In this document: positions 33,781 through 50,683 of the stretch, piece by piece | Numbering within the stretch: the first letter of the stretch is position 1 | How the letters are laid out: each line of letters opens with the position of its first letter | Source: Alphaproteobacteria bacterium | Lineage (GTDB): Bacteria > Pseudomonadota > Alphaproteobacteria > GM7ARS4 > G965262615 | Direction of reading: 5' to 3' | Length of the DNA stretch: 64,000 bases | Assembly (NCBI GenBank): GCA_965262615.1 | Contig: OZ253545.1 | Coordinates: forward strand, 1-64,000 | Notes under the pieces: model-generated | Databases searched by the model: none | The model's input: the letters and a program-made list of their open reading frames with translations, nothing else | Told to the model about the DNA's origin: nothing | Made by a program: the position numbers and the translations under genes

Positions 33781-35133
33781 TCAATAAGACACCAAATCAT
33801 ATAATGCTTCCGTCTCGCCGTTCCAACGTTGCAACAACTGATGAGCAAATGTTTCTTGGTCTCGTGCTTGTTGCCACAAAGGAGCAAGATAGAGCGATTC
33901 GTCTCGTCCCTCGTCATCCACGATGTGTCGTCTGATCAAAGCTTCTTGTGCCATTTCCAACAAATCCAAGATGAGATGGTGCACAGTCTCGGCGGAATTG
34001 GTGTTGATTTTGCTGGCAAAACCATCCTTCATGATGGCTTCGCGCAATGCCTCTCGGTGCTCGTGTGATGATGCCCACGCCTTGATGCGATGCCACACAT
34101 CCGCAATGATGCTGGAGTCATAGAGCAATCCCGTCCACAAAGCCGCCAGTGCACAGATGGCTTGATGATGTCCGCCATCCGCCCCGCGCACCTCCAAATA
34201 ATGCTTCAGACGCACATCGGTAAAGACCGTGCTCATGTGATCGCGCATGTCGGCAAATGTGGCGCGTATTCCTCGCGCCTCGGGCAATGTGCCCGCCATG
34301 AAGTCACGAAAAGAACGCCCCGCCACATCATGATACGCACCGTCACGGCGATAAAAATACATCGGCACATCCAACAAATAAGAGGCATACCGCTCAAAAC
34401 CAAAACCATCCTCAAACACAAAGGGCAAATCACCGCAGCGGTCATCATCGGTGTCGCGCCACACATGAGAGCGATAACTGAGCCAATCGGTGCGAACCCC
34501 CTCCTTGAGAGGTGAGTGGGCAAATAAAAATTGAACCACCGATTGCAGTGCCAGCGCAATGCGAAATTGCCGCACCATCGTGGCTTCGCTGTCAAAATCC
34601 ACATTGACCTGAATGGAACAAGTGCGCAGCATCATGTCCAGCCCCAAGCTTCCCTGCTGCGGCATGTAGCGGCGCATGATGTCGTAGCGAGCTTTGGGCA
34701 TCCAGTGAATCTCATCCCGATGCCAGAAGGGAGCAAACCCCATGCCGAACAAACCCAAATGCAATGGCTCGGCGGCTTTGCGACACTCGCGCAAATGACG
34801 CGCCACTTCCTCACAAGTGCGGTGAATATTCTTCACCGCCGCCCCTGACAGTTCAATCTGCCCCCCCGGCTCTAGCGTGATGGATGCGTTGTCTTTTTGC
34901 AAAGCAATCAGTGTGTCGTCTTCATACACCCCCTGCCAGCCGTGGACGATGAATTGTCGCAGAAATGATTGCACCCCTCGCGCGCCCTCGTAGGGCACCG
35001 GAGCGAGGTTTTTTTTGTCAAAAAGAAATTTCTCATGTTCCGTGCCGATGCGCCATTGGTCACGGGGGGTGATTCCCGATTCCAGATAGGCGGCGATGGC
35101 ATCGGGATTTTCTATGATGTCATCTTCGTTCAT
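33781..35133 (-). CDS. gshA: Glutamate-cysteine ligase
   Basis: WRIGTEHEKF, TLEPGGQIELSG, MPKARY, MMLRTC, RLKHYLEVRGADGG. Confidence 0.94.
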   Translation of the reverse strand: MNEDDIIENPDAIAAYLESGITPRDQWRIGTEHEKFLFDKKNLAPVPYEGARGVQSFLRQFIVHGWQGVYEDDTLIALQKDNASITLEPGGQIELSGAAVKNIHRTCEEVARHLRECRKAAEPLHLGLFGMGFAPFWHRDEIHWMPKARYDIMRRYMPQQGSLGLDMMLRTCSIQVNVDFDSEATMVRQFRIALALQSVVQFLFAHSPLKEGVRTDWLSYRSHVWRDTDDDRCGDLPFVFEDGFGFERYASYLLDVPMYFYRRDGAYHDVAGRSFRDFMAGTLPEARGIRATFADMRDHMSTVFTDVRLKHYLEVRGADGGHHQAICALAALWTGLLYDSSIIADVWHRIKAWASSHEHREALREAIMKDGFASKINTNSAETVHHLILDLLEMAQEALIRRHIVDDEGRDESLYLAPLWQQARDQETFAHQLLQRWNGETEALYDLVSY

Positions 35134-35890
35134 GGTGCGTCATTCGTGCCAGTTGCAAAAGAGAGAGTGCCAAAAATGCGGCACTATCCACTCTATAGAA
35201 GTTTTGTCCCAAATGCACCTGTTCAATTGTGCTGGCGGATGGATGGCGGGCGACCCAATGACACTCCTCATCGCTCCAGCCGCCCTCAGAGCCAATGATG
35301 ACTCCCGCGCCAGAAGAAACATCGCCCTGCGCACAATGATGCCATAGATGTTGCGTGGGGTGAGAGGCATCATAGGGATGACAAAAAAACAACCGAACCC
35401 GAGATGACCAAATGTCAATGGCTTGAGCAAAAGAACAAAGGGGCTTGATTGTGGGGCATGAAAGTAACCCGCATTGTTCGGTTGCCGCCATGGCAACCGC
35501 AATTGATGATGCATGGTTGATGGAACGGCGCGCTGAGTGATGACTCACCACAGGCTGAATGACATCACAGCCGGCTTGGACGGCTTGTTCAATCACATGA
35601 TGCCAACGAGACCCCTTAGGCGGCGCACACAACAACACAAGGGGTTGTGATTCATCCACTGCCCGTAGCTGTTCGCCCACAGAAACGACCAAACATTCCT
35701 TGCTGATGGAGCGAATCACGCCGTGCCATTCACCATCACGCCCATTGAAAACACGCATCTCATCACCCACTTTTGCCCGCAGAACATGAGCCAGCTTGTG
35801 AAAATGACCATGCCTCCTGTCAATTGTGATTTTGACCCCATGCCCAAGAGATTCATTCACCAAAAATCGTCTGAATGTATGAAGGTTCAC
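35120..35890 (-). CDS. rsmE: 16S rRNA m3U1498 methyltransferase
   Basis: HVLR, FNGRDGEW, AATEQC, IIGSEGGWS..E, LGQNFYRVDSA. Confidence 0.88.
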   Translation of the reverse strand: MNLHTFRRFLVNESLGHGVKITIDRRHGHFHKLAHVLRAKVGDEMRVFNGRDGEWHGVIRSISKECLVVSVGEQLRAVDESQPLVLLCAPPKGSRWHHVIEQAVQAGCDVIQPVVSHHSARRSINHASSIAVAMAATEQCGLLSCPTIKPLCSFAQAIDIWSSRVRLFFCHPYDASHPTQHLWHHCAQGDVSSGAGVIIGSEGGWSDEECHWVARHPSASTIEQVHLGQNFYRVDSAAFLALSLLQLARMTHHERR

Positions 35891-35985
35891 GGTTCACGGT
35901 TCACAGTTTATGGTTCATGGTTCACAGTTTATGGTTCATGGTTCATGGTTCATGGTTCATGGTTCATCATCATCATCATCATCAT
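35884..35985. repeat. 12 heptamers (GGTTCAC/GGTTCAT/AGTTTAT) followed by (CAT)6 at the rsmE start
   Basis: Read directly; on the minus strand the unit is ATGAACC/GTGAACC, the first 7 nt of rsmE. Confidence 0.93.
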
Positions 35986-36048: not shown

Positions 36049-37809
36049 TTACAAGGGACCGAGACCGTCAAAGGTGTAACCAAGTCCAAGAGAGATGCGG
36101 TTGTCATCAAACCCACCGTAATTGAGGATTCTGCCGTCTTGCACACCGCCACGCCCAAGCACCGTCACATTGCGTTCTTCATGGTCCAGATAAGTCCAAT
36201 CCATGCGCATGAAGAGATTGTCATAAAGGACACTTTCCACCCCCAAGCCAATGCGATAACTGCCCAATCTGTATTTGTCCACCTCCACAGACGAACTACC
36301 AAGAGTCGCATCGGCGATACTATTACAGGGATTTGTAACATCAGCATTGGATGTGAAATTGGAACTGTGATTCTCGTTTTCAAACTGCGTCCACCCATAA
36401 CCGCCCTTGAGATAAACAAGGGTCTGTGGCGTGAAGCGATAGCCCAACCGTCCCAAAAGGGCAACATCAGAGTGGCGTTTGAAAACATCGCTCCTGACAG
36501 TACAGTTATTAACCGCTGATTGTCCTGCTCCCGTTGTCGCACCCGGCGTTAAACCGTAGTTTTTCGCCACTTCACTCTCAGTGGGGCTACCGAACTCAAT
36601 TTCGCTTCCCAAATAGATGCCATCCAATTGGGATCTTTCAAAAACACGCCCCATGTCAAACCCATAGCCAACGAAACCTGCCCAGCCAAAGAAGTCCTGA
36701 CCAAAATCATTGCTCTTGTTTGTCCTGGTATTGCTCGTGCCAGAGGTGGTTCTCCAATTTGTCGAATCGGACTCGTTGTAAGCGGCATTGCTGTGGTGGA
36801 AGAGTGCTCCAGCATAGACACCATCACCGACCACGCCGCCTCTGACCTTCATGTTCTTGTGCTCGCCCTCACTGCCCGGATAGAAGGTAAAGCCCACCTG
36901 CAATGAATATGTGCGAGCGGCATACTGACGGTTATCACCTGTTCCTGTCGCCAAAACTGCGTCGCGACTGCCCGAATCACGAGTATCCAGCGCGTCCAGA
37001 GAATCATCGTAATCTCTGACAAGCCAGCCAAAGCGCAAGGCACTGCGATCACCAATGGCGATTTCCGAGCCGAAACCAAAGTTCCAAGCGTGGGCAACAT
37101 CACGAGAACCACGCACCTGAGAAGAACCACGGCTTGCTATGTCATAGAATCCCATGCTGTAGCCCACCTGCGTATAGAACAAATGATAAGGCTGCACCAA
37201 GTAACCCATGCGGGTGGAAAAATCCAAATCATAATCCATATTAACCGTGCGCGACCTCATATCAGAAGTTGGGGTCACACCCGCAGGGGTCGTGCTCGTC
37301 CCCGAATAGGTCTGTTGATCATCAGTATAGCTGTATCTTTTCTTGGTGATGGATGCGCCAAACTCACCTCCCAGATAGAAGCCGTGACGCTCAAACACTT
37401 CACCAACTCCCAGAAACATACCAAATCCACTGTTGTCACTAAAGGCGTTGAGGCTGCCATCACCCGCCGCTTGCGTAGCATTACCGGCAGCAGAACTATT
37501 TCGTTCCATTCTGCTGGCGTTATCCCGAACGACACCGCTGGAATTTTGCAACAGGAATCCCAAATAGGGACCCTCAAACATATAGCTGCGAGAGATGATG
37601 CGTCCTCTGCGTATGTCGCGAACTTCCGGCTCGAAATCCTCATCAGCAAATTCAAAGGTGGTGTCTTCAAATTCGTCATAATACTCTTCTTCGTCTCCGA
37701 CATCGGCAAACGATTGAGACACACTCAACGACACCGCCAAGAGAATCATCACCAACAAACGAAGGTGACCATCGGTATCCCTTTTTAAGAAATTAGCAAG
37801 CATTGACAT
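36049..37809 (-). CDS. Outer-membrane protein with two tandem small beta-barrel domains
   Basis: Signal peptide, acidic N-terminus, two repeats of G.Y.G ... R.GY ... G.G.E ... R..W ... G..Y/F; ends RISLGLGYTFDGLGPL. Confidence 0.75.
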   Translation of the reverse strand: MSMLANFLKRDTDGHLRLLVMILLAVSLSVSQSFADVGDEEEYYDEFEDTTFEFADEDFEPEVRDIRRGRIISRSYMFEGPYLGFLLQNSSGVVRDNASRMERNSSAAGNATQAAGDGSLNAFSDNSGFGMFLGVGEVFERHGFYLGGEFGASITKKRYSYTDDQQTYSGTSTTPAGVTPTSDMRSRTVNMDYDLDFSTRMGYLVQPYHLFYTQVGYSMGFYDIASRGSSQVRGSRDVAHAWNFGFGSEIAIGDRSALRFGWLVRDYDDSLDALDTRDSGSRDAVLATGTGDNRQYAARTYSLQVGFTFYPGSEGEHKNMKVRGGVVGDGVYAGALFHHSNAAYNESDSTNWRTTSGTSNTRTNKSNDFGQDFFGWAGFVGYGFDMGRVFERSQLDGIYLGSEIEFGSPTESEVAKNYGLTPGATTGAGQSAVNNCTVRSDVFKRHSDVALLGRLGYRFTPQTLVYLKGGYGWTQFENENHSSNFTSNADVTNPCNSIADATLGSSSVEVDKYRLGSYRIGLGVESVLYDNLFMRMDWTYLDHEERNVTVLGRGGVQDGRILNYGGFDDNRISLGLGYTFDGLGPL

Positions 37810-38000
37810 AGCTTCTCTCCTTCAAGAAATGAGAGACAGGTGACTCATTGACTGTAGCACCCCATCTCCGCAAAGATTCATGTTAGCGATACACACCCCA
37901 CACCTCACTCACGGCAAAGCCCATGACATGTATCATTCCCATTTTTACATCATCTTTTATAAAAAGTAAAGCCCCAATTCATAATGATGATGAGAAAATT

Positions 38001-39368
38001 TTATAAGCCCCACTGGTCAAACGCATAAATGACGGCAAGACTAATGCGATTTTCTTGAATGTTATGCAGGGCTCTGTTGTCACCAATGGTGAAATCCAGC
38101 ACATCGGCATAAGTCCAATCCAATCGGGCGGTGATGTTGTCGTAGACGACGCTTTCAATTCCCGTTCCCACAGAAAATCCGTTGACAAAAGTTTTAGCCG
38201 AAGTGGCACTGCTGCCCCCCTGTTCATACTCCAAGCGCACCCAGTTGTAGCCGCCGCGCGCATACACCATCGTTGCCGGCGTATACAGATATCCAATCCG
38301 CACACCCCAATCAATGGCAACGGGACGCTTGATCTCAGAATCACTGCCCTCATAGACAGTGTGAGAGACCAAGTTCGTGTCAAGACGCAATTCAGTTCCC
38401 AAGTAAATGTCTCTTCGTCCCTTGAAGAAGCGATTGGATCCGATTCCCACAATGCCGCCCACACTGCCGCCTCTCATGCCGACACTATCGCTACTGGCGG
38501 CTGTGTTGCCATCACGCAAATCAGCGGCACTGCTGTATTGACCCTTCACCCCCACATAGACACCATTGAACACAACGCGATTCACCTTCATTCGGCGAGC
38601 ATCAGGACGCTCCTCAAAGCGATAGACCAACCCCACCCGAGAGGTAAAGCTGCGGGGTTTGAGTTCGGTGCGCGGATTATATGCTCCCAAAGACAATTCA
38701 TAATAATCTCGCATCGCCCAATCCAAACGGAAGAAGGCGTTGCCGCCGAGGGACGCCTCCATGCCCAAGCCCACATGATACCCATGCAACAACTGAGCCT
38801 TCTCCAGCGTGATGGTATCGCCTTGCCTGTAATTATAATTAAAGTTGCTGGCACTGTATCCGCCCTGCAGGAACATGAGCGCGCCGTCATGAGAGGCGTA
38901 GGATAATCTCATTCCCACATCAAAGTCGTAGGTGTTTTCCAGATTGTAGAAATCAGTCGCCGACCGAGAAACATGCGTACGCCGCTTAATGATAGAAACC
39001 GACGATGCACCGCCCACATAAAAGTGATGACCATTCTTTGCCATGACCATGTAATCGTATCCGCCATAGAAAGTTCCTCCCATGACGCTCTGCAATCCGC
39101 GATCCTCCGCGCCGTTTGCGCTGGTCTCATTGGAGTATCCCGTTCCGTAGGCGAGTCCAGCCCCGCCGTGACTGCCCTCAAAATAACGAGACTCAGGTTG
39201 CAATGACACACGATCCATTGGCATGGTGTCCGATGGCATGGCATCGGTTTGCATGGTGTCATATGACATGTCGTCATATTGGGCGTGGGCACTGCTCGCC
39301 ATCACACCGCCAAGAGCAAAGCTCAGAACGGCAGCAACGAAGCAAAAATAAGGTGTTTTCATTGTCAT
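38001..39368 (-). CDS. Outer-membrane protein with two tandem small beta-barrel domains (paralog of the adjacent gene)
   Basis: Signal peptide (SAHA); ESVVYDNITARLDWTY matches ESVLYDNLFMRMDWTY in the neighbour; ends RISLAVIYAFDQWGL. Confidence 0.75.
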   Translation of the reverse strand: MTMKTPYFCFVAAVLSFALGGVMASSAHAQYDDMSYDTMQTDAMPSDTMPMDRVSLQPESRYFEGSHGGAGLAYGTGYSNETSANGAEDRGLQSVMGGTFYGGYDYMVMAKNGHHFYVGGASSVSIIKRRTHVSRSATDFYNLENTYDFDVGMRLSYASHDGALMFLQGGYSASNFNYNYRQGDTITLEKAQLLHGYHVGLGMEASLGGNAFFRLDWAMRDYYELSLGAYNPRTELKPRSFTSRVGLVYRFEERPDARRMKVNRVVFNGVYVGVKGQYSSAADLRDGNTAASSDSVGMRGGSVGGIVGIGSNRFFKGRRDIYLGTELRLDTNLVSHTVYEGSDSEIKRPVAIDWGVRIGYLYTPATMVYARGGYNWVRLEYEQGGSSATSAKTFVNGFSVGTGIESVVYDNITARLDWTYADVLDFTIGDNRALHNIQENRISLAVIYAFDQWGL

Positions 39369-39575: not shown

Positions 39576-40538
39576 TTATACTTTAATCTGGGGCGATATA
39601 TTGAGTGAGCCTTTTTCATTGCTCTTGATATAGCCCGTGTCCTTGCTGTCAAAAATGGCTTTGGTGAGTTCCAGCAAAATCAAGTTCTTCACCTCTTTTT
39701 CATTGTCGCTATCGGTCGCCATCACAGAATCCAGTATTGCCCTGTGAGAATTCAGGGCATTTTGTCTCTGCCTGTTGAGATTGTATAAGTGCCGTTCCGC
39801 CGCATGACCCTTAGAAAAATGGGCAATCAAAAATATCCCCAGAGACAAGACAAAAAATTTAAGCAAGGCATTGCTGACAAACATCCCATAATCTACTTGA
39901 CCATCTTTTGGAAAAGATGTGCCATCAACATAGAAGGCAACGGCAAGAATTGCCGTAACAACAATACAGCCTATCATAGTCCGAAAATTTTTATGGGCTC
40001 TTCTTTTATTCTCCTTTGCCTCATCCCCAAAGAAAGTGCCGAATTTTTCTCCCTCTTCTTTCTGCTTTTCTGTTTGAGCACTTTGAAGAAGCTCCTCTGC
40101 TTTTTTCACATTGTCCAAGCCACCCTTGAGGGCATCTAAAAGTTTTTTCGCCTGTTCTTCAGTATTCTTTAGCTTTTCATCCTCATGAGAGCCAATAGCT
40201 CGCATATATTCTCTGACCGTAGAAGTGCGTTGAATGATGTCACTTTTCTTGTTTTTAATCTTGCTGATATAATTTTCCTTTTCTGCCGTATCTCCAAAAT
40301 TTCTCACATCTTGAGCAAAACCAAAAAAATTTTGCAATAGATTTTCCATTTCTTGTACACGGTTATCGGGCAAATCGGCAAAATTTGGATGGAATAAAAT
40401 ATCATCAAATACCTTTTTGATTTGAGCAAAATCCTTTTCTGCTCCTTTTAAATTATGGTTGCCCAAGTCCTCACGGAGCAACGCGTTCCACGCCAATTGC
40501 TCGTATGCTTTTTTTATATCGGGATTAAGTTCAGCCAT
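39576..40538 (-). CDS. Hypothetical coiled-coil protein with two TM helices
   Basis: 320-aa AT-rich ORF; charged helical N-terminus, two hydrophobic segments, RQRQNAL motif. Confidence 0.75.
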   Translation of the reverse strand: MAELNPDIKKAYEQLAWNALLREDLGNHNLKGAEKDFAQIKKVFDDILFHPNFADLPDNRVQEMENLLQNFFGFAQDVRNFGDTAEKENYISKIKNKKSDIIQRTSTVREYMRAIGSHEDEKLKNTEEQAKKLLDALKGGLDNVKKAEELLQSAQTEKQKEEGEKFGTFFGDEAKENKRRAHKNFRTMIGCIVVTAILAVAFYVDGTSFPKDGQVDYGMFVSNALLKFFVLSLGIFLIAHFSKGHAAERHLYNLNRQRQNALNSHRAILDSVMATDSDNEKEVKNLILLELTKAIFDSKDTGYIKSNEKGSLNISPQIKV

Positions 40539-40576
40539 CCTGACACCTTGAGGAATTTTACCCCTTCGCTCTCACA

Positions 40577-40819
40577 TCAATGCTTCTTGTCACGCGGTGG
40601 GAATGGGTCATTGCCAGGGGCAACCGTGTCTGAATCCCGCCATCTGCCATATTTATTTTGTGTCACAACTTCGCCGCCGCCATTATTTTCGACTATTTCC
40701 TTTGCAGCTTCTTGGGCTTGTGCTTGCGTTGAGTGGATACTAGAGGCTCGCTGTGCATTAGGTGCTTTAACAGCCCAGCCATCTGGGTGTTTGACGACAT
40801 ATCTATTATTACTTGACAT
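40577..40819 (-). CDS. DUF2188 family protein
   Basis: YVVKHPDGWAVK..AQRAS..HSTQAQAQEAAK..GGEVVTQNKYGRWRDSDT..GNDPFPPRD; AAGGAG RBS. Confidence 0.85.
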   Translation of the reverse strand: MSSNNRYVVKHPDGWAVKAPNAQRASSIHSTQAQAQEAAKEIVENNGGGEVVTQNKYGRWRDSDTVAPGNDPFPPRDKKH

Positions 40820-40939
40820 TGCTTTGCTCCTTGATTTTGGAGTTTGGAAAAATGGTCTATAAGACACAAGCCTTGCAGACATCGACACCATTTATGGTAG
40901 CCAAAATATAAAAAATGTCAATATATTGTGGAAAATAAA

Positions 40940-40986: not shown

Positions 40987-41039
40987 TGGCGTAGAGGGGG
41001 GGGGGATTCGAACCCCTGATACGGCTCAAAACCGTATAA
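40987..41039 (-). repeat. att direct repeat (duplicated 3' half of tRNA-Ser)
   Basis: Matches 50591-50640 except for two substitutions and a G-run of 10 rather than 7. Confidence 0.93.
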
Positions 41040-41775
41040 TGTGTTCCTCTCTGTTATAGACGCGTTGAATGTTGGTGAGAAAAAGATTGCCGGTCTTACT
41101 GACGGCTCTGGCTTCATCTTGAATGTGAATGTTGATTTGAAAGTCATTTCTCCAGTTGCGTCCTTCAAAGCCGTTGTGAGGGATGACGGGATCATTCAAA
41201 AATATAGCGCGTCCTTCAAAATCATCGCGCAGGCGATCCAGCACGATGATATTGGGCGCAATGAGCAAGAAATTGCGAGCGAGATTTGAATTGTCCTCGT
41301 AGGTTTTGTGAAAGAAGCTCCAAGCGATGGCGAGGCTCATGGTTTTGGTCTTGCCGCTGCCTGTTGCCATTTTGACAACCAATCTGCGCCAATGCTCTGG
41401 AAACATACCAGCTGACACCGCCCCTGAGCTGTCAAAACGCATGAGGTCGTATTTGTCTTTGAATTCAATCACCTCATGCAGATAAATGATGGTTTCTATG
41501 GCTTCTCTTTGAGCAAAATAGTATTGAAAAAGCGAGCCATCCTCTTGAGGGTGGTCGGTTGCAAACCACCATGTGAGAAGGGCGCGGCTGGTGGCGGAGC
41601 ATCCCTCGTAGTTTGTGTCACGCCATTTTTTGACGGCGGTGCGTAATTGCTCCACCAGAGGCGGCAGCAGACAATCATACCCCATGCTTTTCAGCCCATC
41701 AGGCGTGGGATACCAACGCGTTGACGGGTCAACAATGTCATGAGGCGATAAAGGAAAATCCTTACCAAGAGGCAT
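41026..41775 (-). pseudogene. res: Type III restriction enzyme Res subunit, C-terminally truncated at att
   Basis: YFAQREAIET, KMATGSGKT, IAPNIIVLDRL; only 249 aa, reads into the att repeat and stops before the DEAH motif. Confidence 0.85.
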
Positions 41776-41802: not shown

Positions 41803-44031
41803 TCATATCCTTACCTCAATTACGGTCATGGAGTCGTTGCCGAATATGTCTACCACTTTGATGGCGACTTTGCGAGTGCCTGAGTCGCATTCTATGGGGG
41901 TGGTGATGAATTCCAGTTGTTTGTTTTTCTTGGTGCGGAAGCTTTGCCATTCGTTTTCAAAGATGAAGTTTCCTGTGGTCATGACATCCATCTCTGTGCC
42001 GTCCTTGCCATCGGTGAGGATGACTTCGGGCTTGCTTTCGTAGTTGAAATCCACCGACCAGTAGTCAATCCAGTCCGACCATTTTTTGGTGATGGTTTGC
42101 TGGGAACAAATGCCGTTGGTGTCCTTGCTGATTTTAACAAGCTGCCCGCGCTCCAGTATGATGGTGCTGCCGCCGTTTTTGAGGTTGGCGATGGCGGTCT
42201 CCATGGTGCCCTCATTGTAGGCGACCGAAAACCCAGTGAGTTCTATTGCCAGCATGGTTTTTTTGCCCTTGCCTGTGATGTGAGGCTTGGCTTCAATGTA
42301 GGCGATGTCGTGAAACACCACCTGATTGCGCTCCACGGCTTTTTTGTCAAACACATCACGGGGGATGTATTTGAGAGCCAGCATCACCCCTTGTTGCTTG
42401 GCTTCTTCTTGAGCGTGGGTGTTGAGGGACATTTCAAACTCAAAGGCAAGAATATCCACATTGATGATGCCGCGCCGTTTGCATTCCGCCACCACCTCAT
42501 CCACAAAATGACCCGTGACCGGCAGATTGATGGGACCCACCACCACCATGTGATTGCCCTTTTTGCCATGAAACATGGCGTCCGATGCAATGGACTCGGC
42601 GGCATAAGCTCGCAAAATGAGCCTGAGATAGTCCTGTTCTTTGACGCGCCATTGTTGAGCCTGTTGGTCATCATTGAGGTTGGTGTTGATGCCCACATAG
42701 TGCTGTCGCTCATACTTGCCCAGATTGAGAATCTCAAACGCGCGATAGTCCATGCCGTTCTTTTTGAGCTGTCGCTGCACATTGATCATGCGCTTTTTGG
42801 TGGTGTGAATGGCGAATTTGCCCAAGTCGGAGCAGATCCACTTGCGTCCCAGCTTTTCCGCCACCGCCGCGGTCGTCCCCGAACCACAAAAAAAGTCAGC
42901 GACAATATCGCCTTCTTTTGTACTAATATTTAAAATCCTCTCTAAAAGGTCTTCAGAATTTTCTGTAGGATATTTTGTTGTAAAAGAATATCCCGGAATA
43001 TCTGTCCAATTTGTATCTAAAGCCATTGTATCAGATGGCTTTACATAATACTCAAGACTATTTAGCTTCTCATTGAACCTCAATGTACCTTCGTCTATCA
43101 TTCTTTCCATGCGCTTTTGATTAAACTTAAAATGTTTCCCCGACGGCGGATAAAAAACCCGCCCAAACAAATTTCTTTCTCTTGGCTTCCTTTCTCCATC
43201 ACTATCATCCGTTCTTCTCCAATAGCCTTCTCTTATCTTGTCTCTTTTTTTGTCAATATTTATGAATTGAGAATCCTTTGATTGGAAATATACGAAAAGC
43301 GTATCTGTCGCGACAGGCAGAGAAAGTCTTCCTTGAGAAGTGACATTTTTTTTAATTCTATTTACCAGAATTTCTGACTGGAAATGTTCTTTTCCAAAAA
43401 CTTGGTCGAGCATAACCTTGACATAGTGTCCCCAGTGATGGTCAATTCTTAAAAAGAAAATTCCATCATTTGAAAGCATATCTTTCATTAATTGAACACG
43501 CTCAAAAAGCATACTTAAAAAAGTGTTCCCTTGGTTGCCCCATGTATTTCTATATGCAAATTCCTCCAGAATGGATGGGCTTTTGACAAATGGCTCGTTA
43601 GAATTATCATCACCAATATCTACCTTAATAGAGTAATCCAAACCAGCACTAAATGGTGGGTCAATATAGATGAGTTTGATGCCTCCTGCCTCCTCAATCG
43701 TGCGGCGCGTGTTGCCGCTTTTGAGGGATGACAAAATGAGTCTATTATCGCCCCAGATGAGTTTGTTTGCCCAGCCGCTGATTTGTCTGCCGCTGTGGGC
43801 ATCAAACAATTCCCCTTGCTGATGCCGCACCTCTTCGCTACGGGGTTCATCCACCTGTTCAATGGTTTGAAAGGGCAGCACCACATTGGTGACATCCTTG
43901 GTCTTGCCATTCCACACCAGCTCCACCTCTCGCTGGTCACCAAACAACAAAAACCGATACTTCTCGTCCAACGCCTTGCCATCCTCAAGCAAGCGGGTGA
44001 TATCTCTGATTTCATTGTCGCTCAAACGCAT
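41803..44031 (-). CDS. mod: Type III R-M adenine methyltransferase Mod subunit
   Basis: ELVWNGK, NKLIWGDN, IYIDPPF, VADFFCGSGTT, IDYWSVDF, VKVVDIFGND-like C-terminus; upstream of res. Confidence 0.9.
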   Translation of the reverse strand: MRLSDNEIRDITRLLEDGKALDEKYRFLLFGDQREVELVWNGKTKDVTNVVLPFQTIEQVDEPRSEEVRHQQGELFDAHSGRQISGWANKLIWGDNRLILSSLKSGNTRRTIEEAGGIKLIYIDPPFSAGLDYSIKVDIGDDNSNEPFVKSPSILEEFAYRNTWGNQGNTFLSMLFERVQLMKDMLSNDGIFFLRIDHHWGHYVKVMLDQVFGKEHFQSEILVNRIKKNVTSQGRLSLPVATDTLFVYFQSKDSQFINIDKKRDKIREGYWRRTDDSDGERKPRERNLFGRVFYPPSGKHFKFNQKRMERMIDEGTLRFNEKLNSLEYYVKPSDTMALDTNWTDIPGYSFTTKYPTENSEDLLERILNISTKEGDIVADFFCGSGTTAAVAEKLGRKWICSDLGKFAIHTTKKRMINVQRQLKKNGMDYRAFEILNLGKYERQHYVGINTNLNDDQQAQQWRVKEQDYLRLILRAYAAESIASDAMFHGKKGNHMVVVGPINLPVTGHFVDEVVAECKRRGIINVDILAFEFEMSLNTHAQEEAKQQGVMLALKYIPRDVFDKKAVERNQVVFHDIAYIEAKPHITGKGKKTMLAIELTGFSVAYNEGTMETAIANLKNGGSTIILERGQLVKISKDTNGICSQQTITKKWSDWIDYWSVDFNYESKPEVILTDGKDGTEMDVMTTGNFIFENEWQSFRTKKNKQLEFITTPIECDSGTRKVAIKVVDIFGNDSMTVIEVRI

Positions 44032-44209
44032 CAGGGCATGATAAGCACATCGGCACGGAATGAAAAGCCAGAAAAACATTATATTTACTTATAATGAGTT
44101 AAGAGTTACCAAAAAATCTTTGCTCGTTGAATAGCTCTGTCAGGTAAGGTAGATTATTCTCAAGGAGGGTAGTTCTGTCCTATTCTGGACAATCAGAAGC
44201 AGAACTATA

Positions 44210-46222
44210 ATGGTTGTGCCAGTGGGTTGGATAAGTCAGCTAATAGGGAAATTTACGGGGTGGTTTTGTCGTGTCCTGAAAAGATTCACTGACCCTTCTT
44301 CTGATAAAAACGAAAACTCATCGCCTGATGCCTCTACGCCAATTCCACCTCAACTACACCCCAACACTCACCCGCCAATTTTGCCAGAACATCAATCTTC
44401 CACCGAAGATAATCAAAGCGAGCAAAACCAAAAAGTCAAAGGAAATCATCCCGCAGACATTCCAGGGCGACGGAATCCGAAGCACACAGAATCAGAGCCC
44501 GAAGCTAAGGAAAAAGAATCGTCATCCTTCCGTCCTCAATTGATGTGTCGGAGAAAGGCTGGTGCTTGGCAGGTTATTGTGTCTGGGAATGAGGAGTGTC
44601 CCATCAAAGGGGTGCGTCTTGGGAATCAAGATTTGGAGGTCATCAATCAAGAATGTCCCATAGACTCACTGGAGGGACATCTTGTCACTTGGTCTGAAAA
44701 TGGGGATAAACGCGAAGTCGCGTTATTCAATGGCGAGCCTCTCATTTTCAAATTTTCAAAAAACTGGAAGGGCACGGAGATTTCTCAAATCACGAACGGT
44801 CATTTCATCGTCATCGCTCCTGCCGAATGGACAAGGGTGGGCGACAGGCGAGACGCTGGTGGGGCGGAGCCTTGTAAAGATGAAAAATTCAGGGCGCATT
44901 TTTTCTCTCGGAATAAAAATGATTCGGATGAGGAAATCAAAGGTTTTGAAGGACAGCCGCCCCTTCCTGTTGGTTTGAGCATAGAATGGGATGGCGAGAG
45001 AGTCTTTGATGACTCGGCGGACGAAGGCATCCTGTTCGTTGGAGATGCTCCAAAGCCCGTATTGTCACCAGATATTGCGAGCGCACGAGTTGTAGAGGAA
45101 ACGGAAGATGGTGGCGGTTGGGGGGAGAACTTTATTCCAAGTGATGAGAAACTTGCAAAAGTTTTGAACGGCAGAGAGGGACATTTTTCTCTTCGCATTT
45201 ACGCGCGTGGATCAAGGCGTGAGCTTGATAGCAAGCAGTTTCGTTATATGAGTCAATTGAAAGAAATCCGTGTTGATGATGAGTCATATACAGCCGCCAC
45301 CGCTATCGCGCCCACATCTGCAGGATATTCACCAACGGAAGTGCAATTCATTGCCAGAGACGGCAGCAGGCTGACTCCGAAATCATTACCCGAATTTTCT
45401 CATGCGAAGCTGGTGGGGGATGTCATTAAAGTTCCACCACACCATAAAGCAGATCGCATTGTTTGTGCTCTTGAGACAAAGACCAATGATGTGCAGATTG
45501 TGTTACAGCTGCCAAAAATATGGTGGCGATTGGAGAGCGATGGCGATGATGCGGGTGAATGGAGTGACAAACCCATCACCATGACACGAGAGGAATTTCG
45601 TGATCATGCTCGCGATGAGATAAAGATTTCAATCTTATCCAAGCGATGCAAATTGGTGCATACGGGATTCAACGACAAGCGGGATAAACAATACTCCCGC
45701 AAAGAGCAGGATGAGTGCATTCAAATTCCCTTGTATGCATTTGATGACAGGCTGCCAACTGAGCCAGAATCTCGTGCCCCTCTTCAATTCAATGTTGAAT
45801 GGATGGGAACAGTCACGACACTCATTCAGTTTGTTTCGCGACAAGGTGCAAGTGAAACAAAGTCGCTCCCTCGCACCGTAAAGCCAAGTTCCAAAAATGA
45901 AGTAAAGGGCGTTAAAAGAAACTACGGTTCTGATTCGTTACGAGATACGAGTAGAAAAAAGCCGCCCACTCTTCCAAAAGTCAGGCTCATCAAGCCAGAA
46001 GCCACCGCCGTTTGGCTGGTGGAGAATAGTTCTCTCACTTTTAAGCAGATTGCGGATTTTGTTGACATGCATGTTCTGGAGATTCAGGCAATTGCGGATG
46101 GCGAAGCTCATGCCGACCTTATAGGTGAAGACCCCGTTAAAGAATTGCATCAGCTCACCAGAGAAGAGATTGAACGCTGTGAAAAAGACCCAGAAGCTTC
46201 TCTCAGACTTAAAGAAATTTAG
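44210..46222 (+). CDS. Hypothetical 670-aa helicase partner with a C-terminal TrcR/DUF1013-like domain
   Basis: Disordered N-terminus, beta-rich core, linker, then KPEATAVWLVENSSLTFKQIADFVDMHVLEIQAIADGE...QLTREEIERCEKDPEASLRL. Confidence 0.8.
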   Translation: MVVPVGWISQLIGKFTGWFCRVLKRFTDPSSDKNENSSPDASTPIPPQLHPNTHPPILPEHQSSTEDNQSEQNQKVKGNHPADIPGRRNPKHTESEPEAKEKESSSFRPQLMCRRKAGAWQVIVSGNEECPIKGVRLGNQDLEVINQECPIDSLEGHLVTWSENGDKREVALFNGEPLIFKFSKNWKGTEISQITNGHFIVIAPAEWTRVGDRRDAGGAEPCKDEKFRAHFFSRNKNDSDEEIKGFEGQPPLPVGLSIEWDGERVFDDSADEGILFVGDAPKPVLSPDIASARVVEETEDGGGWGENFIPSDEKLAKVLNGREGHFSLRIYARGSRRELDSKQFRYMSQLKEIRVDDESYTAATAIAPTSAGYSPTEVQFIARDGSRLTPKSLPEFSHAKLVGDVIKVPPHHKADRIVCALETKTNDVQIVLQLPKIWWRLESDGDDAGEWSDKPITMTREEFRDHARDEIKISILSKRCKLVHTGFNDKRDKQYSRKEQDECIQIPLYAFDDRLPTEPESRAPLQFNVEWMGTVTTLIQFVSRQGASETKSLPRTVKPSSKNEVKGVKRNYGSDSLRDTSRKKPPTLPKVRLIKPEATAVWLVENSSLTFKQIADFVDMHVLEIQAIADGEAHADLIGEDPVKELHQLTREEIERCEKDPEASLRLKEI

Positions 46223-46273
46223 TCATTGACGAATGGGAGAAGAGGGCTCACCCTATATCCGTTGAGGAGCGGC

Positions 46274-49200
46274 ATGATGGCAAACGAAGTTGATATAAAG
46301 CATCTCAAGCAATGGACGAAGAGAATTCACCAACGCTATGTGGATTATTTGACCACCTCATTCTTTTTCTCAGACCCTGATTTGCGCCGATCGTTTCGTG
46401 ATGCTCTTGGCAAAGAGGGAAGGCTGCAGAAAGAGGCTTCAGAAGAACATTTTGAATTCAAAAAGGGAATGCACGCTCATCAATTGGCGGAAAAAATTTT
46501 TGCAGGCAAAAATGTGAGTGATCTTAAGCACGCATTAATTGGTGATGCGTTGTATGACCATCAAGAACAAGCCATCAAAAATGCCTTTGCGAAGCAAAAG
46601 AATTTGGTTGTTGCTACTGGGACTGCCAGTGGCAAGACCGAGAGTTTTCTTTATCCCATTTTGTTTGAATTATTTCGCCAGCACCTTGCGGGAGATTTGA
46701 AAAATCCTGGGGTGCGCGCCATGATTCTGTATCCCATGAATGCACTGGCGAACGACCAGCGCGAACGCTTGGGAGAAATTTGCAAGAAATTGAAAGAGGC
46801 AGGCTCTCAGTTCAAACCGACATTTGGGCAATACATTGGGCAAACTCCAGAGGACGAAAAAAACGAGTGGCGCAATGCGTCCGAGCGCGAAAAAAATCGC
46901 TTAGATGGGGAACTGGTTTTTCGTAAAGAAATGCGTGACACACCGCCTCACATTTTATTGACCAATTATTCAATGCTGGAATATTTGCTCATTCGCCCCA
47001 AGGATACTCCTCTGTTTGATGGTGACAGAGGCGCGCATTGGCAGTTTCTCGTTCTGGATGAGGCGCATCAGTATCGCGGTGCCAAGGGGATGGAAATCGG
47101 CATGCTGATGCGGCGTCTCAAGCAGCGATTGCGTGACGGGGGGCGGCAAGATTCTTTTCGCTGCATCGCCACCAGTGCCACCATGTCATCGCGCGAAAAT
47201 CAAGAAGACAGAAAGGCGATTGCCGAATTCGCCAAAAAACTTTTTGACGAGCCTTTTGCCGAGGATGACATCATATTTGGCAAAAGGGAAAAGGTTAAAG
47301 ATGAAAGCACGCCGAGCCGCCATCATGCCTTTTTGCGTGGGCTTCAGGGTGCGTTTCTTGTCCATAAGAATGGCAAGGACACTGTGGCACTCAATCGCAA
47401 GGATGAGGACGACAGCAAAGAAAAAAGCGAACCTCTTGAGATCGCGCTGTGCCGCGAATGCGGACAACATTATTATGTCGGCAAAGAACAAGATGGCAAA
47501 CTGAGAGAAGGAATTCGCGATCCCAGTCATGAAGAATTCGGCGTGGATTACTATCTGCCAGATGAAACGGGGAAAGGAGTTTTATGTCGGCAATGTGGGG
47601 CTCTTGCGAAGTCATCATGCGATTGCACAAATTCGGCGTTCATTGCCGTCAAGAAATGCAAATCTCACAAAGAGCATCCCGACGAATTGGAGAAGTGTGA
47701 GGCTTGCGGCTATGGGCGTGGCAGCATTGGTGACCCTGTGCGAGAGATTGTGCATGGCTCGGATGGACCGGGCACTGTGATCGCCACCACTGTGCATGAG
47801 GTGCTACACGAATTTCTTCCCGAAGACAAACGCAAAATTTTGGCTTTTGCCGACAGTCGCCAGCGAGCGGCATTCTTTGCTTGGTATATTGAGGATTCCT
47901 ACAGGAATATTCTTCACCGCAATCTCATTTACAGAGCGATGAACTCCGAAGACATTGCGGATGAAGGTTTAACCATCAACGACTTGACCCATTGCGTGTA
48001 TAAATTGTGGGAAAAGATTGGACTCTTTGAAAAACCAAGTGCAAGTAAGGCGGAAAAATCCCGTGAAGTGTCAGAATCCGTTCTGCGCGAGGCGGTGACT
48101 GATGATAAAAGGAGGTCTTTGAGTGGTGTTGGCTTGGTGAAATGGTCTGTCAAATTACACCCGAATTTGAAGCTGCCCCCCGAAATGCTTCAACCGCCGT
48201 GGAATTTCAGCGAGGATGATGCTTACGCTCTGATCCGTTATCTGCTGGACAATATGCGCTCGCATCAAAGAGCCATAAGTTTGCCAGAAGATAGTAAAAC
48301 CGCAAAATGGGCGGATATATCACCGTATGAGCAGAAGCCAAAGGGGAAGACACTTGTGCAATGGTGTAACACAAAAAATACCATTGTTGGTTGGTTTCTT
48401 CACAGAATTCTTGACGCAAAAGAAAGTGGGCTATCGGATGAAGAGAAGCACTCTTGTGCCGCAAAACTCCTGCGCAAGATTTGGTATGAATTGCGAGATT
48501 TACCAGAAAATGATCCTATGCTCATGCGTATATCGCACCGTAGCGACGCGTTTCTTCTGAATTGTGGCTGGGTGCGGGTAAAGCTGGCAAAGCCTGATGA
48601 AATTTGGCGTTGTGAAGACTGCACCACGCTCAGTAGCCATAACATTCGCGATGTTTGTCCGCGCAAGGGGTGTGGTGGCATGTTGAAACCTGTTGATGAG
48701 GATAAGCAGAAGGTTCTTGAAGGAAATCACTATCGCAAGCTCTATAAAAACGCTCATCTGCCGCCGAAACTGCGCGCGAAGGAACACACCGCTCAGATTG
48801 AGGCGAATGAGGCGGCTCAAAGACAGAGCGAATTCAAGGATGGTAAAATTCATCTGCTGAGTTCCTCCACCACATTTGAGTTGGGTGTTGATCTTGGCGA
48901 TTTGGATTGTGTTTTTCTGCGTAATGTTCCGCCAGAGCCGTTCAATTATGTGCAACGGGCTGGTCGTGCGGGGCGAAGAGATTCTCCGGGTCTGGTCTTG
49001 ACCTATTGCGACCGCAATCCGCATGATCTCTATCATTACGAAGACCCCGAACGCATCATGAAAGGTGAGGTGCGTCCGCCACAGCTGCACATGACCAACC
49101 ATAAGATTGTATCACGCCACATGGTGGCTGCCGTCTTATCTGAATTTTTTAGGGCACATCCAGAACGGTTTGAAAGTGTGGAGAGCTTTGTTGACGATTG

Positions 49201-50563
49201 GGAAGGCATGGAAGACCCGCAAGTGGCAAGTGACATTCGTCAATTTTGCAAAAAGAACAGCCAATTGAAAGAATCTTTGTGTCGCATCGTGGATGAGAAT
49301 ATGCACAAGAAAGTCGGGCTCAAGGATGATGCGTGGATTGATGAAATTGCGGGCAAAGACAGTCGTCTTGTTAAGGCGGTGAAGGAGGTTTTGAACGACC
49401 ATAAAAAACTGGAGGAAATTCTTGGAAAACTCAGTAAAGAAAAAAAATATCAAGAGTGCGACCAAATAGTGAAGCGTCAAAACACCATCAAAGGTGAGAG
49501 GGTTCTTGATTTTCTTTCACGCAAAGCGGTCATTCCCAAATACGGCTTTCCTGTTGATGTTGTTGAGCTTGACATCCATTCTGGTGATAAGAATGTTTCG
49601 CTCCAGCGCGACCTATCTCAGGCAATTGGCGAATATGCGGCGGGCAGCAAGGTGGTGGCTGATAAAAAGGAATGGATTCCCTACGGCATTAAGACAATTG
49701 CTGGTAAAAGGTGGAAGGAGCAGTATTACCACTACACCAATGCTCGCGACTTTAAGAATTGGAGCGAAGGTGAAAGCGAAGACGAAAAAGACAAACAGGG
49801 GCGTCAATATCTCATTCCAGAGTTTGGTTTTGTCACTGAGTGGTTCAAAAAAGCTCCAGAGCCACGGAGAGGGGCGCGCCGTCTCTACACGACGCGTCCT
49901 TTCTTTCCTGGTTTCAAGGATCAAAAAGAGCCAGAGTCCAAAAATATAGCGGGTGTGAATGTCACTCCCGCCACCCCTGGCACTCTGGTGATCCTTTGTG
50001 AAGGAAGAAAAAGAAATGGTTTTTATATTTGTCCTGATTGCGGTACTCAAAGAGCAGAGCGCGAGATTCCCCACAAAACACCGTGGGGTTCAACATGTAG
50101 GACACCGCCGCGTCCTTTTTCCCTCGGTCACGAATTGGAGACCGATGTTGTGTGTCTTCATTTTCCGAATCTGTGTGATGAATGGGAAGCTTATTCCGTT
50201 GCCTATGCGATGTTGTTGGGTGCGGCGGATAGATTGGGCGTTCCCGATAATGATTTGAATGTCACCATCACGGGAGGTAAAGGTAAAGACGAGTACGCAG
50301 TCGTACTTTATGACAATGTTCCAGGCGGAGCAGGTCTGGTGGCGCAGCTTGAGAAAGAAGATGTTTTTTGTGATATCCTTAAGAGTGCCGAAGCGCGTGT
50401 TCAAGGTCAATGTGGCTGTGATTCAAGTTGTTACGGTTGTCTTCGAAGCTATCGCAATCAGTTCGCACATGCAGACCTCAATCGGCAACGGGCAAAGGAA
50501 ATTCTCGAAAGTTGTGTGGGACAAATGGTTGGACAGGCAAGCTTGCCTTCCCTCAAAACATAG
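46274..50563 (+). CDS. Large DEAD/DEAH helicase with Zn ribbons and C-terminal DUF1998 (DruE-like)
   Basis: TGTASGKTE, YPMNALANDQ, LLTNYSMLEY, DEAH, SAT, FADSRQ, TTFELGVDLG, QRAGRAGRR, YDNVPGGAG, CGCDSSCYGCL; GAGGAG RBS. Confidence 0.9.
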   Translation: MMANEVDIKHLKQWTKRIHQRYVDYLTTSFFFSDPDLRRSFRDALGKEGRLQKEASEEHFEFKKGMHAHQLAEKIFAGKNVSDLKHALIGDALYDHQEQAIKNAFAKQKNLVVATGTASGKTESFLYPILFELFRQHLAGDLKNPGVRAMILYPMNALANDQRERLGEICKKLKEAGSQFKPTFGQYIGQTPEDEKNEWRNASEREKNRLDGELVFRKEMRDTPPHILLTNYSMLEYLLIRPKDTPLFDGDRGAHWQFLVLDEAHQYRGAKGMEIGMLMRRLKQRLRDGGRQDSFRCIATSATMSSRENQEDRKAIAEFAKKLFDEPFAEDDIIFGKREKVKDESTPSRHHAFLRGLQGAFLVHKNGKDTVALNRKDEDDSKEKSEPLEIALCRECGQHYYVGKEQDGKLREGIRDPSHEEFGVDYYLPDETGKGVLCRQCGALAKSSCDCTNSAFIAVKKCKSHKEHPDELEKCEACGYGRGSIGDPVREIVHGSDGPGTVIATTVHEVLHEFLPEDKRKILAFADSRQRAAFFAWYIEDSYRNILHRNLIYRAMNSEDIADEGLTINDLTHCVYKLWEKIGLFEKPSASKAEKSREVSESVLREAVTDDKRRSLSGVGLVKWSVKLHPNLKLPPEMLQPPWNFSEDDAYALIRYLLDNMRSHQRAISLPEDSKTAKWADISPYEQKPKGKTLVQWCNTKNTIVGWFLHRILDAKESGLSDEEKHSCAAKLLRKIWYELRDLPENDPMLMRISHRSDAFLLNCGWVRVKLAKPDEIWRCEDCTTLSSHNIRDVCPRKGCGGMLKPVDEDKQKVLEGNHYRKLYKNAHLPPKLRAKEHTAQIEANEAAQRQSEFKDGKIHLLSSSTTFELGVDLGDLDCVFLRNVPPEPFNYVQRAGRAGRRDSPGLVLTYCDRNPHDLYHYEDPERIMKGEVRPPQLHMTNHKIVSRHMVAAVLSEFFRAHPERFESVESFVDDWEGMEDPQVASDIRQFCKKNSQLKESLCRIVDENMHKKVGLKDDAWIDEIAGKDSRLVKAVKEVLNDHKKLEEILGKLSKEKKYQECDQIVKRQNTIKGERVLDFLSRKAVIPKYGFPVDVVELDIHSGDKNVSLQRDLSQAIGEYAAGSKVVADKKEWIPYGIKTIAGKRWKEQYYHYTNARDFKNWSEGESEDEKDKQGRQYLIPEFGFVTEWFKKAPEPRRGARRLYTTRPFFPGFKDQKEPESKNIAGVNVTPATPGTLVILCEGRKRNGFYICPDCGTQRAEREIPHKTPWGSTCRTPPRPFSLGHELETDVVCLHFPNLCDEWEAYSVAYAMLLGAADRLGVPDNDLNVTITGGKGKDEYAVVLYDNVPGGAGLVAQLEKEDVFCDILKSAEARVQGQCGCDSSCYGCLRSYRNQFAHADLNRQRAKEILESCVGQMVGQASLPSLKT

Positions 50564-50590: not shown

Positions 50591-50683
50591 TGGCGGAGAG
50601 GGGGGGATTCGAACCCCCGATACGGCTCAAAACCGTATAACGGATTAGCAATCCGCCGCTTTCGACCACTCAGCCACCTCTCC
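50591..50683 (-). tRNA. tRNA-Ser(GCT)
   Basis: Reverse complement GGAGAGGTGGCTGAGTGGTCGAAAGCGGCGGATTGCTAATCCG...GGTTCGAATCCCCCCCTCTCCGCCA with a long variable arm. Confidence 0.96.

Follow-up and report, generated by a model that had tools for sequence, protein, structure and literature searches.

Druantia anti-phage systems have the DruE helicase in common and differ in the proteins that accompany it, namely DruA-D in type I, DruM, DruF and DruG in type II, DruH in type III, and DruF and DruL in type IV (the last composition as given in the available part of PMC8565338). The DruE of Druantia III is described, in the accessible parts of the published work, as a 3'-to-5' DNA helicase that engages phage intermediates containing single-stranded DNA. 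In subtype III-A this protein is about 2000-2100 amino acids (aa) long and carries C-terminal phospholipase D (PLD)-like nuclease domains, which, according to the available text of a preprint (Himpich et al.), are dispensable in III-A and missing from a III-B subtype; the same text reports that III-A clears phage with growth and viability unaffected. The accessible part of Bell et al. 2025 states that a 'Druantia type III-like' branch is 'most frequently' without a nuclease. DruH is divided, in what is available of the preprint of Hu et al., into a globular N-terminal domain, six immunoglobulin (Ig)-like subdomains and a C-terminal domain, and is reported there to bind single-stranded DNA in competition with ATP; the available portion of the preprint of Wu et al. 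proposes that the III-A DruH is a protein-recognising infection sensor, which may recognise late phage proteins. As far as their accessible text goes, the 2026 preprints disagree on contact between DruH and DruE, and the roles that they give to DruH are single-stranded DNA binding, ATP competition or phage-protein recognition. The present analysis concerns two adjoining genes, here called gene 1 and gene 2, on the first 64,000 nucleotides (nt) of contig OZ253545.1 of the Alphaproteobacteria bacterium assembly GCA_965262615.1 (forward strand; this whole stretch is called the window). Comparison of their products with known families points to a Druantia-like helicase system in which the helicase is of a type already known and the partner appears to belong to a new, modular family; in this genome the partner ends in a copy of one domain of the host protein TrcR.

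The helicase is the more readily placed of the two proteins, and its features are listed below, with residues counted from the first in-frame start at 46226.

46274-50563, plus strand: gene 2, a compact DruE-type helicase of 1429 aa from ATG 46274 (open from TTG 46226, 1445 aa)
46556-47197, plus strand: DEAD/DEAH domain, gene 2 residues 111-324 (Pfam PF00270, 2.1e-20)
48755-48979, plus strand: Helicase_C domain, gene 2 residues 844-918 (Pfam PF00271, 2.1e-12)
50201-50443, plus strand: MZB/DUF1998 zinc-binding domain, gene 2 residues 1326-1406 (Pfam PF09369, 5.8e-12)

The ATG at 46274 is the more likely start, with the string GAGGAG 4 nt upstream and a gap of 51 nt after gene 1. An earlier interpretation made from the DNA letters (the sequence-only reading) had proposed a two-gene operon on the plus strand at 44210-50563, with a DUF1998 helicase of about 1430 aa, akin to DruE, as its second gene. 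Both open reading frames (ORFs) lie where it put them, the length agrees with the 1429 aa counted from ATG 46274, and the assignment to DruE is borne out: like a Druantia helicase, gene 2 joins a superfamily 2 core (DEAD, Helicase_C) to an MZB/DUF1998 domain and scores as DruE, with all seven DruE models of PADLOC matching at 1e-100 or better, led by DruE1 (7.1e-170, 566 bits), and with DruE3 at 3.9e-143. A GKT Walker A motif, a DEAH box and a cysteine cluster can be read in the translation. The matches among PDB sequences are a 2108-aa helicase (9tu7, 5e-73), a 1970-aa helicase (9wae, 8e-42) and YprA (6znp, 4e-23). The Pfam matches of gene 2 include no PLD or other nuclease family, and the protein ends 39 residues past the MZB domain, which leaves no room for a C-terminal nuclease. 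The gene is present as a single copy in the 1.54-Mb genome.

The partner protein is of a different kind, and can be divided into the following parts.

44210-46222, plus strand: gene 1, the partner protein, 670 aa (ORF and translation; 24 homologues)
44210-44521, plus strand: gene 1 residues 1-104, the N-terminal part (alignment A1 and composition; no Pfam match)
44522-45889, plus strand: gene 1 residues 105-560, the conserved core of about 455 aa (alignment A1, core hidden Markov model)
45980-46219, plus strand: gene 1 residues 591-670, a copy of the TrcR (DUF1013) N-terminal domain (Pfam TrcR, BLASTP against native TrcR)
45809-46214, plus strand: polymorphic cassette made up of the core end, the linker and the tail (read contigs)

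The start of gene 1 is possibly a GTG two codons further in, where the homologue P0003 begins. Residues 1-104 open with a short amphipathic helix, which is followed by a low-complexity stretch rich in proline, serine and acidic residues that ends in a basic motif of the type P-x-x-I-G-G-R-R. The core has no match in Pfam, PADLOC, NCBIfam or PDB sequences. The only Pfam match in the whole protein is to TrcR (PF06242, E 2.4e-10, 41.1 bits against a cut-off of 22.2), with residues 623-669 lying on positions 1-46 of the 139 in the profile; this model begins about 33 residues into TrcR. TrcR itself, a cell-cycle factor of alphaproteobacteria, is described as an RNA-polymerase-associated factor in the available part of PMC12864828. 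BLASTP against the TrcR of the same genome extends the likeness to residues 591-669, which correspond to TrcR residues 2-79 with 50 of 79 positions identical (63%, E 4e-29), and so the proposal that the last 78 or so residues of gene 1 resemble the N-terminus of TrcR is substantiated.

Thirteen native TrcRs, when aligned, show two similar domains (about residues 1-80 and 100-165) joined by a basic linker. The tail of gene 1 aligns end to end with the first of these domains, and the homology is thus at domain level; gene 1 has no counterpart of the basic linker, the second domain or the acidic tail, whereas a native TrcR is a stand-alone protein of about 190-270 aa that covers the two-domain profile of 139 positions. 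The tail retains 24 of the 27 positions that are invariant among the native proteins, and its closest relative is the TrcR of its own host (62.5%), with the next seven natives listed at 52-57%. A separate, full-length trcR, for which the sequence-only reading had advised a check, lies elsewhere in the genome (G000:C1:182876-183274; E 4.3e-43, profile positions 1-134 of 139, in an ORF of 188 aa), which rules out the fused copy as the only trcR. The capture of the domain is old, not recent, because the GC content at third codon positions of the tail (0.41) resembles that of the rest of gene 1 (0.43) and not that of the native trcR (0.57), and because the tail is only 75.6% identical to the host trcR DNA over 131 nt; the same two figures rule out a recent capture from the host trcR. 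Unlike a native trcR, then, the tail follows the island in its codon composition. The profile of TrcR had no relative among solved structures.

An assembly error was a further concern raised for 45.9-46.0 kb. The junction running from core through linker and tail to gene 2 is crossed without differences by contigs from four public runs of two studies (45779-46269 in X1 and X2, 45918-46269 in X4, 45710-46237 in X5), one of these runs being possibly the source sample of the assembly, and the same architecture is found in five other metagenome proteins (P0003-P0007, 62-83% identical overall). The crossing contigs and these five proteins together exclude a chimeric assembly.

In architecture, the pair is like Druantia III-B, in the sense that a partner gene lies upstream of a compact, PLD-less DruE in a two-gene unit; the domain set of the helicase (DEAD, Helicase_C and MZB/DUF1998) is shared with Druantia III, as is location on a tRNA-integrated island. 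Compared with III-A, gene 2 is shorter (1429-1445 aa) and has no PLD-like domains. The differences from type III as a whole are that the best DruE profile is DruE1 and not DruE3, that the partner is 670 aa long against about 1100 aa for DruH, and that gene 1 begins with a long disordered stretch and ends in a module that can be exchanged, features not mentioned for DruH in the literature examined. Gene 1 also matches no PADLOC model of a Dru partner, whereas a DruH from a type III locus on a Klebsiella plasmid, taken as positive control, matched ten DruH3 models; neither gene 1 nor five of its relatives gave any PADLOC match except one to MzaA, on the sigma-70 part of the relative P0027, described below. 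Alignment of the family profile (A1) with the Klebsiella DruH by hhalign gave a probability of 0.1% (E 0.66). With types I, II and IV the pair shares the DruE helicase, with DruE1 as top profile, but no model of DruA-D, DruM, DruF, DruG or DruL matches gene 1, and the island holds besides the pair only a methyltransferase gene and a restriction gene fragment. By sequence, therefore, gene 1 is not a DruH, and the system is best regarded as Druantia-like with a new partner family. Of the earlier proposal of a compact Druantia-like system, the helicase and the two-gene module have stood, and the Dru partner profiles against which gene 1 was to be checked gave no match. A further likeness is provided by a Clostridium butyricum plasmid (L025:2768-10653), on which a DruE-like helicase of 1559 aa (30.5% identical over 97% of gene 2, best model DruE1) has one large gene upstream; the 1069-aa product of the latter matches neither the DruH models nor the gene 1 family, and is possibly another unnamed Druantia-like partner. 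The partners of gene 2 and of the plasmid helicase being unrelated, nuclease-less DruEs would pair with several unrelated partner families.

The literature search found no description of a fusion between TrcR and a Druantia partner, in agreement with the sequence-only reading, which knew of none, and no phage defence protein fused to L13e or S5; the papers found on integrated decoys against phages did not concern Druantia, and those found on DUF1013 did not concern defence, by title and start of abstract. The main text of Bell et al. 2025 contains none of the terms ribosomal, DUF1013, TrcR, L13e and decoy, and the supplementary lists of 'type III-like' partners of that study may already include the gene 1 family.

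Whether the C-terminal domain varies among homologues had been raised as a question along with the fusion, and the answer is that it does. The first search gave 24 homologues of gene 1, in which alignment A1 distinguishes an amphipathic N-terminal helix, a variable stretch rich in proline, serine and acidic residues that ends in a GGRR-like motif, the core, and a variable C-terminal part; the N-terminal part has a median length of 188 aa and reaches 486 aa. Nine of these homologues were compared with Pfam: two close relatives had TrcR matches below the cut-off (21.6 and 21.9 bits), three matched Ribosomal_L13e (17.3-27.7 bits; cut-off 24.9), two had both domains of ribosomal protein S5, and two were without a match. 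The L13e-like tail matches the archaeal L13e model NF008914 of NCBIfam (2.3e-11), and the S5 tail is near-complete, covering positions 4-151 of the 156 in the bacterial S5 model (3.6e-33); both remain below the curated NCBIfam cut-offs for true ribosomal proteins. The profile of the family matched only eL13 chains among PDB sequences, through the tail (best 1.1e-4), and the core remained without a match. Nine long N-terminal extensions gave no domain match within the extension.

A profile search of 1.84 billion cluster representatives returned 5094 matches at E<=1e-3, 2203 at 1e-10 and 734 at 1e-30, counts which include some matches to an Ig-like part alone. One such case is P0161, a protein of 4314 aa that matches the family only through the Ig-like linker domain, in 46 stretches; the Ig-like domain, which lies between the core and the L13e-like tail, is therefore part of a widespread repeat family, and low-scoring matches are not all family members. 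The core model, on the other hand, matched 171 of the 172 proteins submitted to it, and 58 core positions are conserved at 90% or more among 156 cores.

Tails were counted in the best 150 representatives, of which one had no core and four an incomplete core end, leaving 145 that could be scored by their last 75 residues. The L13e-like type is by far the most frequent (121 of 145, 91 of these being long enough to include the Ig-like domain); the remainder comprises two S5 tails, one TrcR tail, one coiled coil, one tail too short to class, unassigned types with three, two and two members, and 12 singletons, some of which are truncated proteins. The position of the tail is kept in 144 of the 145. 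Ten odd tails searched against Pfam gave only a weak helix-hairpin-helix match (0.0068), a MacB-like match (3.6e-10) and an N-terminal DUF4389. One member is P0027, a single 1331-aa ORF on one metagenome contig (L022:5616-9611), in which sigma-70 regions 2, 3 and 4 (E 1e-16 to 7e-24) and a second sigma-70 region 1.2 accompany the core, regions 2-4 lying ahead of it; the L13e-like end can be read in its translation and has no Pfam match. The sigma-70 part of this protein gave the match to MzaA (3.5e-65), which in PADLOC is a defence protein with a sigma-70-like part.

Searches were also made with single tails. The 61-aa L13e-like tail matched none of the proteins of 33-107 aa, by a method that needs shared five-residue words and is accordingly weak. 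The TrcR tail, compared with proteins of 368-1173 aa, matched members of the family and one other protein, P0174, a metagenome protein of 384 aa that combines hexapeptide-transferase Pfam domains with a TrcR match; this is probably two neighbouring genes merged by the gene caller, and not a second kind of TrcR fusion. A scan of genome contigs with gene 1 recovered stand-alone trcR genes only (12 loci) and no core. The family, seen almost only in metagenomes, is unrecognised by the models of PADLOC (2023) and NCBIfam, and such loci would therefore score as orphan DruE. Taken together, these comparisons define what is, as predicted from its sequences, a previously unnamed partner family, in which a disordered N-terminus precedes a core of about 455 aa and the C-terminal module can be exchanged.

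The history of the tails was followed on a FastTree tree of the 156 cores, with midpoint rooting and parsimony for the tail states; P0029, P0146 and P0100, whose summed core matches far exceed one core length, and all incomplete cores were omitted. The L13e-like tail is inferred to be ancestral, and the TrcR domain of gene 1 would therefore have replaced a tail of this type. The tree requires the tail type to have changed at least 18 times, a figure inflated by the truncated singletons. The TrcR-tailed proteins form one clade (6 of 6, support 1.0), while S5 tails occur at two positions: in the clade of P0022-26, and in P0090, beside a sister of the L13e type (support 0.878). In P0090 the S5-type tail is placed after the Ig-like domain, and over 121 residues its S5 part shares 40% identity with the one in P0022; the family has apparently acquired S5 a second time, independently of the first.

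Within the TrcR clade the proteins are mosaics. P0001 and P0005 are 99% identical in the N-terminus, 80% in the core and 47% in the tail; P0003 and P0005 share 92.6% of the core and again 47% of the tail; and P0001, P0003 and P0004 have the same tail (100% identity) although their cores differ by about 18%. In the alignment with native TrcRs, the four versions of the TrcR-type tail are 36-55% identical to one another. Set against the near-identical native N-terminal domains of Rhodobacterales, an identity of 31-55% for TrcR-type tails means that the tails evolve much faster than native TrcR. The read contigs add a further level of variation, in that those of X2 and X4 join 45808 straight to 46215, while the end of an X1 contig at 45808 continues into letters that translate to the residues of P0005 after 'WMG'. 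More than one tail cassette thus seems to be present within single samples; the evidence is moderate, as reads were placed at 90% likeness and the sides of the joint are 30 and 55 nt.

The pairing of the two genes is conserved. A metagenome scan gave eight loci related to gene 1, and in seven of them a DruE homologue (52.6-63.5% identical to gene 2) lies directly downstream, the eighth ending within the gene 1 homologue; partner and helicase ORFs overlap or abut. The neighbours are restriction-type genes in L019 and L020, and housekeeping genes in the scanned flanks of L021, L022 and L017, where the pair is an isolated insert (L021 being flanked by DUF1501/DUF1800 genes). As the flanks differ from locus to locus, the two genes evidently travel as a unit. 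Across tail types, sequence conservation is higher in the helicase (52.6-63.5% identity) than in the core of the partner (28-42%). The tail is therefore unlikely to be the part that docks on the helicase, and this role, considered as a candidate, was rejected.

In the window, the pair occupies one end of a tRNA island, the elements of which are as follows.

About 40990-41041, no strand assigned: att-like direct repeat that copies the 3' end of tRNA-Ser, left island border
41026-41775, minus strand: type III res fragment, 249 aa (Pfam ResIII 2.1e-12; NCBIfam BPTD_3080-family restriction endonuclease)
41803-44079, minus strand: mod DNA methyltransferase, 758 aa (Pfam N6_N4_Mtase 5.8e-32)
50591-50683, minus strand: intact tRNA-Ser(gct), right border (ARAGORN; Rfam tRNA, 64.1 bits)

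The sequence-only reading had placed the operon inside such an island, next to a type III restriction-modification (R-M) locus. The island is real and spans 9.6 kb, as follows from the copy of the tRNA-Ser 3' end, of about 50 nt, at the left border: 41 nt of it are 98% identical to 50600-50640, and the likeness extends to about 50 nt. The tRNA-Ser gene points with its 3' end toward gene 2, and the GC content is 0.44-0.48 within the island against 0.49-0.56 outside. The R-M locus is indeed present but not intact. Its res fragment matches only positions 69-207 of a restriction-enzyme model of 970 positions and terminates inside the att repeat, which suggests a deletion between att copies; the locus is decayed, and the methyltransferase is orphaned. 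No integrase was found among the ORFs between the repeats. The only match in an Rfam scan was the tRNA, and scans for promoters and terminators revealed no clear operon signals, the consensus matches being close to what shuffled sequence gives. No RNA run was listed among the sequencing runs that contain the sequence. The flanks consist of housekeeping genes, with topA, dprA and plsY on one side and outer-membrane proteins, an rsmE-like and a gshA-like gene on the other.

Three further observations concern the surroundings of the island. The stretch 39576-40891, outside the att repeat, is still low in GC and carries a 320-aa ORF without family match and a DUF2188 ORF (4.3e-18), which may have been left behind by an earlier insertion into this tRNA site. 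At 35871-35973 there is a run of 7-nt tandem units of the types GTTCACG and GTTCATG, which lies at the 5' end of the rsmE-like methyltransferase ORF (35120-35890, minus strand), reaches just upstream of that end and is located downstream of a gene for an outer-membrane beta-barrel protein; such a tract could be prone to slippage. Two adjoining outer-membrane beta-barrel genes on the minus strand at 36049-39368 (586 and 455 aa) have a 55-nt stretch in common at 71% identity and are probably paralogues.

With a probability that we would put at roughly 0.45, the two genes form a Druantia-like anti-phage module that is complete in itself and sits on a decayed tRNA-Ser island, and the tail serves to dock the partner on nucleic acid or on the transcription-translation machinery. 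The context is that of a defence locus, with an att-bounded island of low GC content, R-M remnants, homology to DruE and a patchy distribution. By analogy with Druantia III, gene 2 would be the motor, unwinding phage replication or recombination intermediates after loading on their single-stranded regions; gene 1 would be a sensor or adaptor, and its C-terminal module the element of specificity or targeting. In the alphaproteobacterium the partner would dock on RNA polymerase by means of its copy of the TrcR N-terminal domain, and in relatives it would reach RNA or the ribosome by means of the L13e-like or S5 modules; the helicase could in this way be delivered to injected DNA under active expression, or be set free there. 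The analysis shows directly the architecture of the proteins, the conservation of the pair, and tails that have recognisable homologues, have been exchanged repeatedly and diverge fast, while the defence function and the polarity and substrate of the helicase are carried over from published work on Druantia III and should be read as putative, as should, above all, the binding target of the tail. Docking is favoured because the identifiable modules are from RNA-binding, DNA-binding or RNA-polymerase-associated proteins.

Several points weigh against this reading. There is no sequence link to DruH, and the roles in sensing and in single-stranded DNA binding are transferred by analogy only. The archaeal-type L13e-like module has no evident docking target in a bacterium. 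Three of the four versions of the TrcR-type tail (gene 1's being the exception) retain only 10-14 of the 27 native-invariant positions, which is a poor fit to a conserved docking on RNA polymerase, and mosaic proteins together with cassettes that vary within samples would be less expected of a housekeeping tether than of a surface shaped by an arms race. None of 400 other genomes of the class, none of 400 in a sample of the phylum and none of the viral contigs scanned contained the core.

The points just mentioned on variation lead to the next best explanation, somewhat unlikely in our view, in which the tail is an integrated bait that mimics a host factor (TrcR, sigma-70 or S5) bound or modified by phage takeover proteins, so that capture of the phage protein activates the partner and licenses the helicase. 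Plant NLR immune receptors with integrated decoys carry copies of host-protein domains, and the gene 1 family likewise carries such copies at its end, differing by lineage; the likeness is conceptual, and differs in that the commonest tail of the gene 1 family has no bacterial original. In a fuller version, to which we attach the same rather low likelihood, the partner would be a bacterial sensor, the captured phage protein would unleash the nuclease-less DruE, and cassettes would be swapped between co-occurring strains as phages change their targets. Such a surface would account for tails that diverge much faster than the native N-terminal domains, for mosaics such as P0003 and P0005, and for more than one cassette within single samples. 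A near-complete S5, found at two places, and sigma-70 regions 2-4 exceed a minimal nucleic-acid-binding domain, and the gene 1 tail, with its 24 of 27 invariant positions, is mimic-like; the proposal that III-A DruH is a protein-recognising infection sensor (available part of the Wu et al. preprint) is in keeping with this. However, the dominant and inferred ancestral tail is L13e-like, and it resembles an archaeal and eukaryotic ribosomal protein that is absent from bacteria, which leaves nothing to mimic and weakens a pure host-protein decoy. The hosts of L13e-like tails do look bacterial, to judge from the sigma-70 regions in the same protein of L022 and the DUF1501/DUF1800 genes near L021. 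Mimicry is also made less likely by three of the four TrcR-type versions, in which roughly one in two native-invariant positions has been lost, and no phage partner is known. The sequence-only reading had proposed both a decoy and a tether, and the evidence is compatible with either; the other explanations, taken up below, are less likely than docking or bait.

It is doubtful that the tail is itself the effector, a mimic that after its release or exposure would compete with TrcR for RNA polymerase, with S5 for the 30S subunit or with sigma for core polymerase, and would stall gene expression of host and phage, so that defence would be by growth arrest. In favour of such a role are the lack of a detected nuclease or other effector family in gene 1 or gene 2, the origin of all identifiable tails in essential components of gene expression, and the fact that the TrcR copy is an N-terminal domain fragment, the usual form of a dominant negative. 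The idea is wholly inferential, though, and the L13e-like tail would have no native competitor in bacteria. In addition, III-A is reported to clear phage with no effect on growth and with its PLD domains dispensable (Himpich et al. preprint, accessible text), so that a helicase-only DruE needs no separate effector.

To about the same degree it is improbable that the tail is a helix-turn-helix-like DNA-binding end for autoregulation of the operon, or a tolerated relic that plays no part in defence, and that the variety of tails reflects neutral accretion of domains. The TrcR N-terminal domain does read as a small helical DNA-binding module (a reading of the sequence, with no family or structure match), one relative has the weak helix-hairpin-helix match (E 0.0068), and many tails have no assignable family. 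But neutral accretion fits poorly with S5 at two separate places of the core tree, with a tail position kept in 144 of 145 representatives, and with one 100% identical tail on three cores that differ by about 18%, and ribosomal RNA-binding modules would be odd in an autoregulator that binds promoters.

Least of all is it to be expected that the pair has no part in defence and consists of a DNA-repair helicase of the MrfA/YprA type with an accessory protein. Gene 2 does match YprA/MrfA (6znp, 4e-23), but with 84 bits, far below the 566 bits of DruE1. The island that carries the pair is att-bounded, low in GC and has R-M remnants, and at other loci the pair is found next to restriction genes. 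Its patchy occurrence (0 of 800 other sampled genomes) and its mosaic, polymorphic alleles likewise speak against a repair role.

How Druantia systems sense infection is still open, and the gene 1 family offers a natural experiment on this question, as a conserved helicase is paired with a partner whose end has been swapped many times. If the tail sets specificity, tail swaps should re-aim the system, and such re-aiming would tell steering by docking on RNA polymerase or the ribosome from baits for phage takeover proteins. In either case, a sizeable partner family, beyond the models of PADLOC (2023) and NCBIfam, would be added to those that accompany DruE-type helicases.

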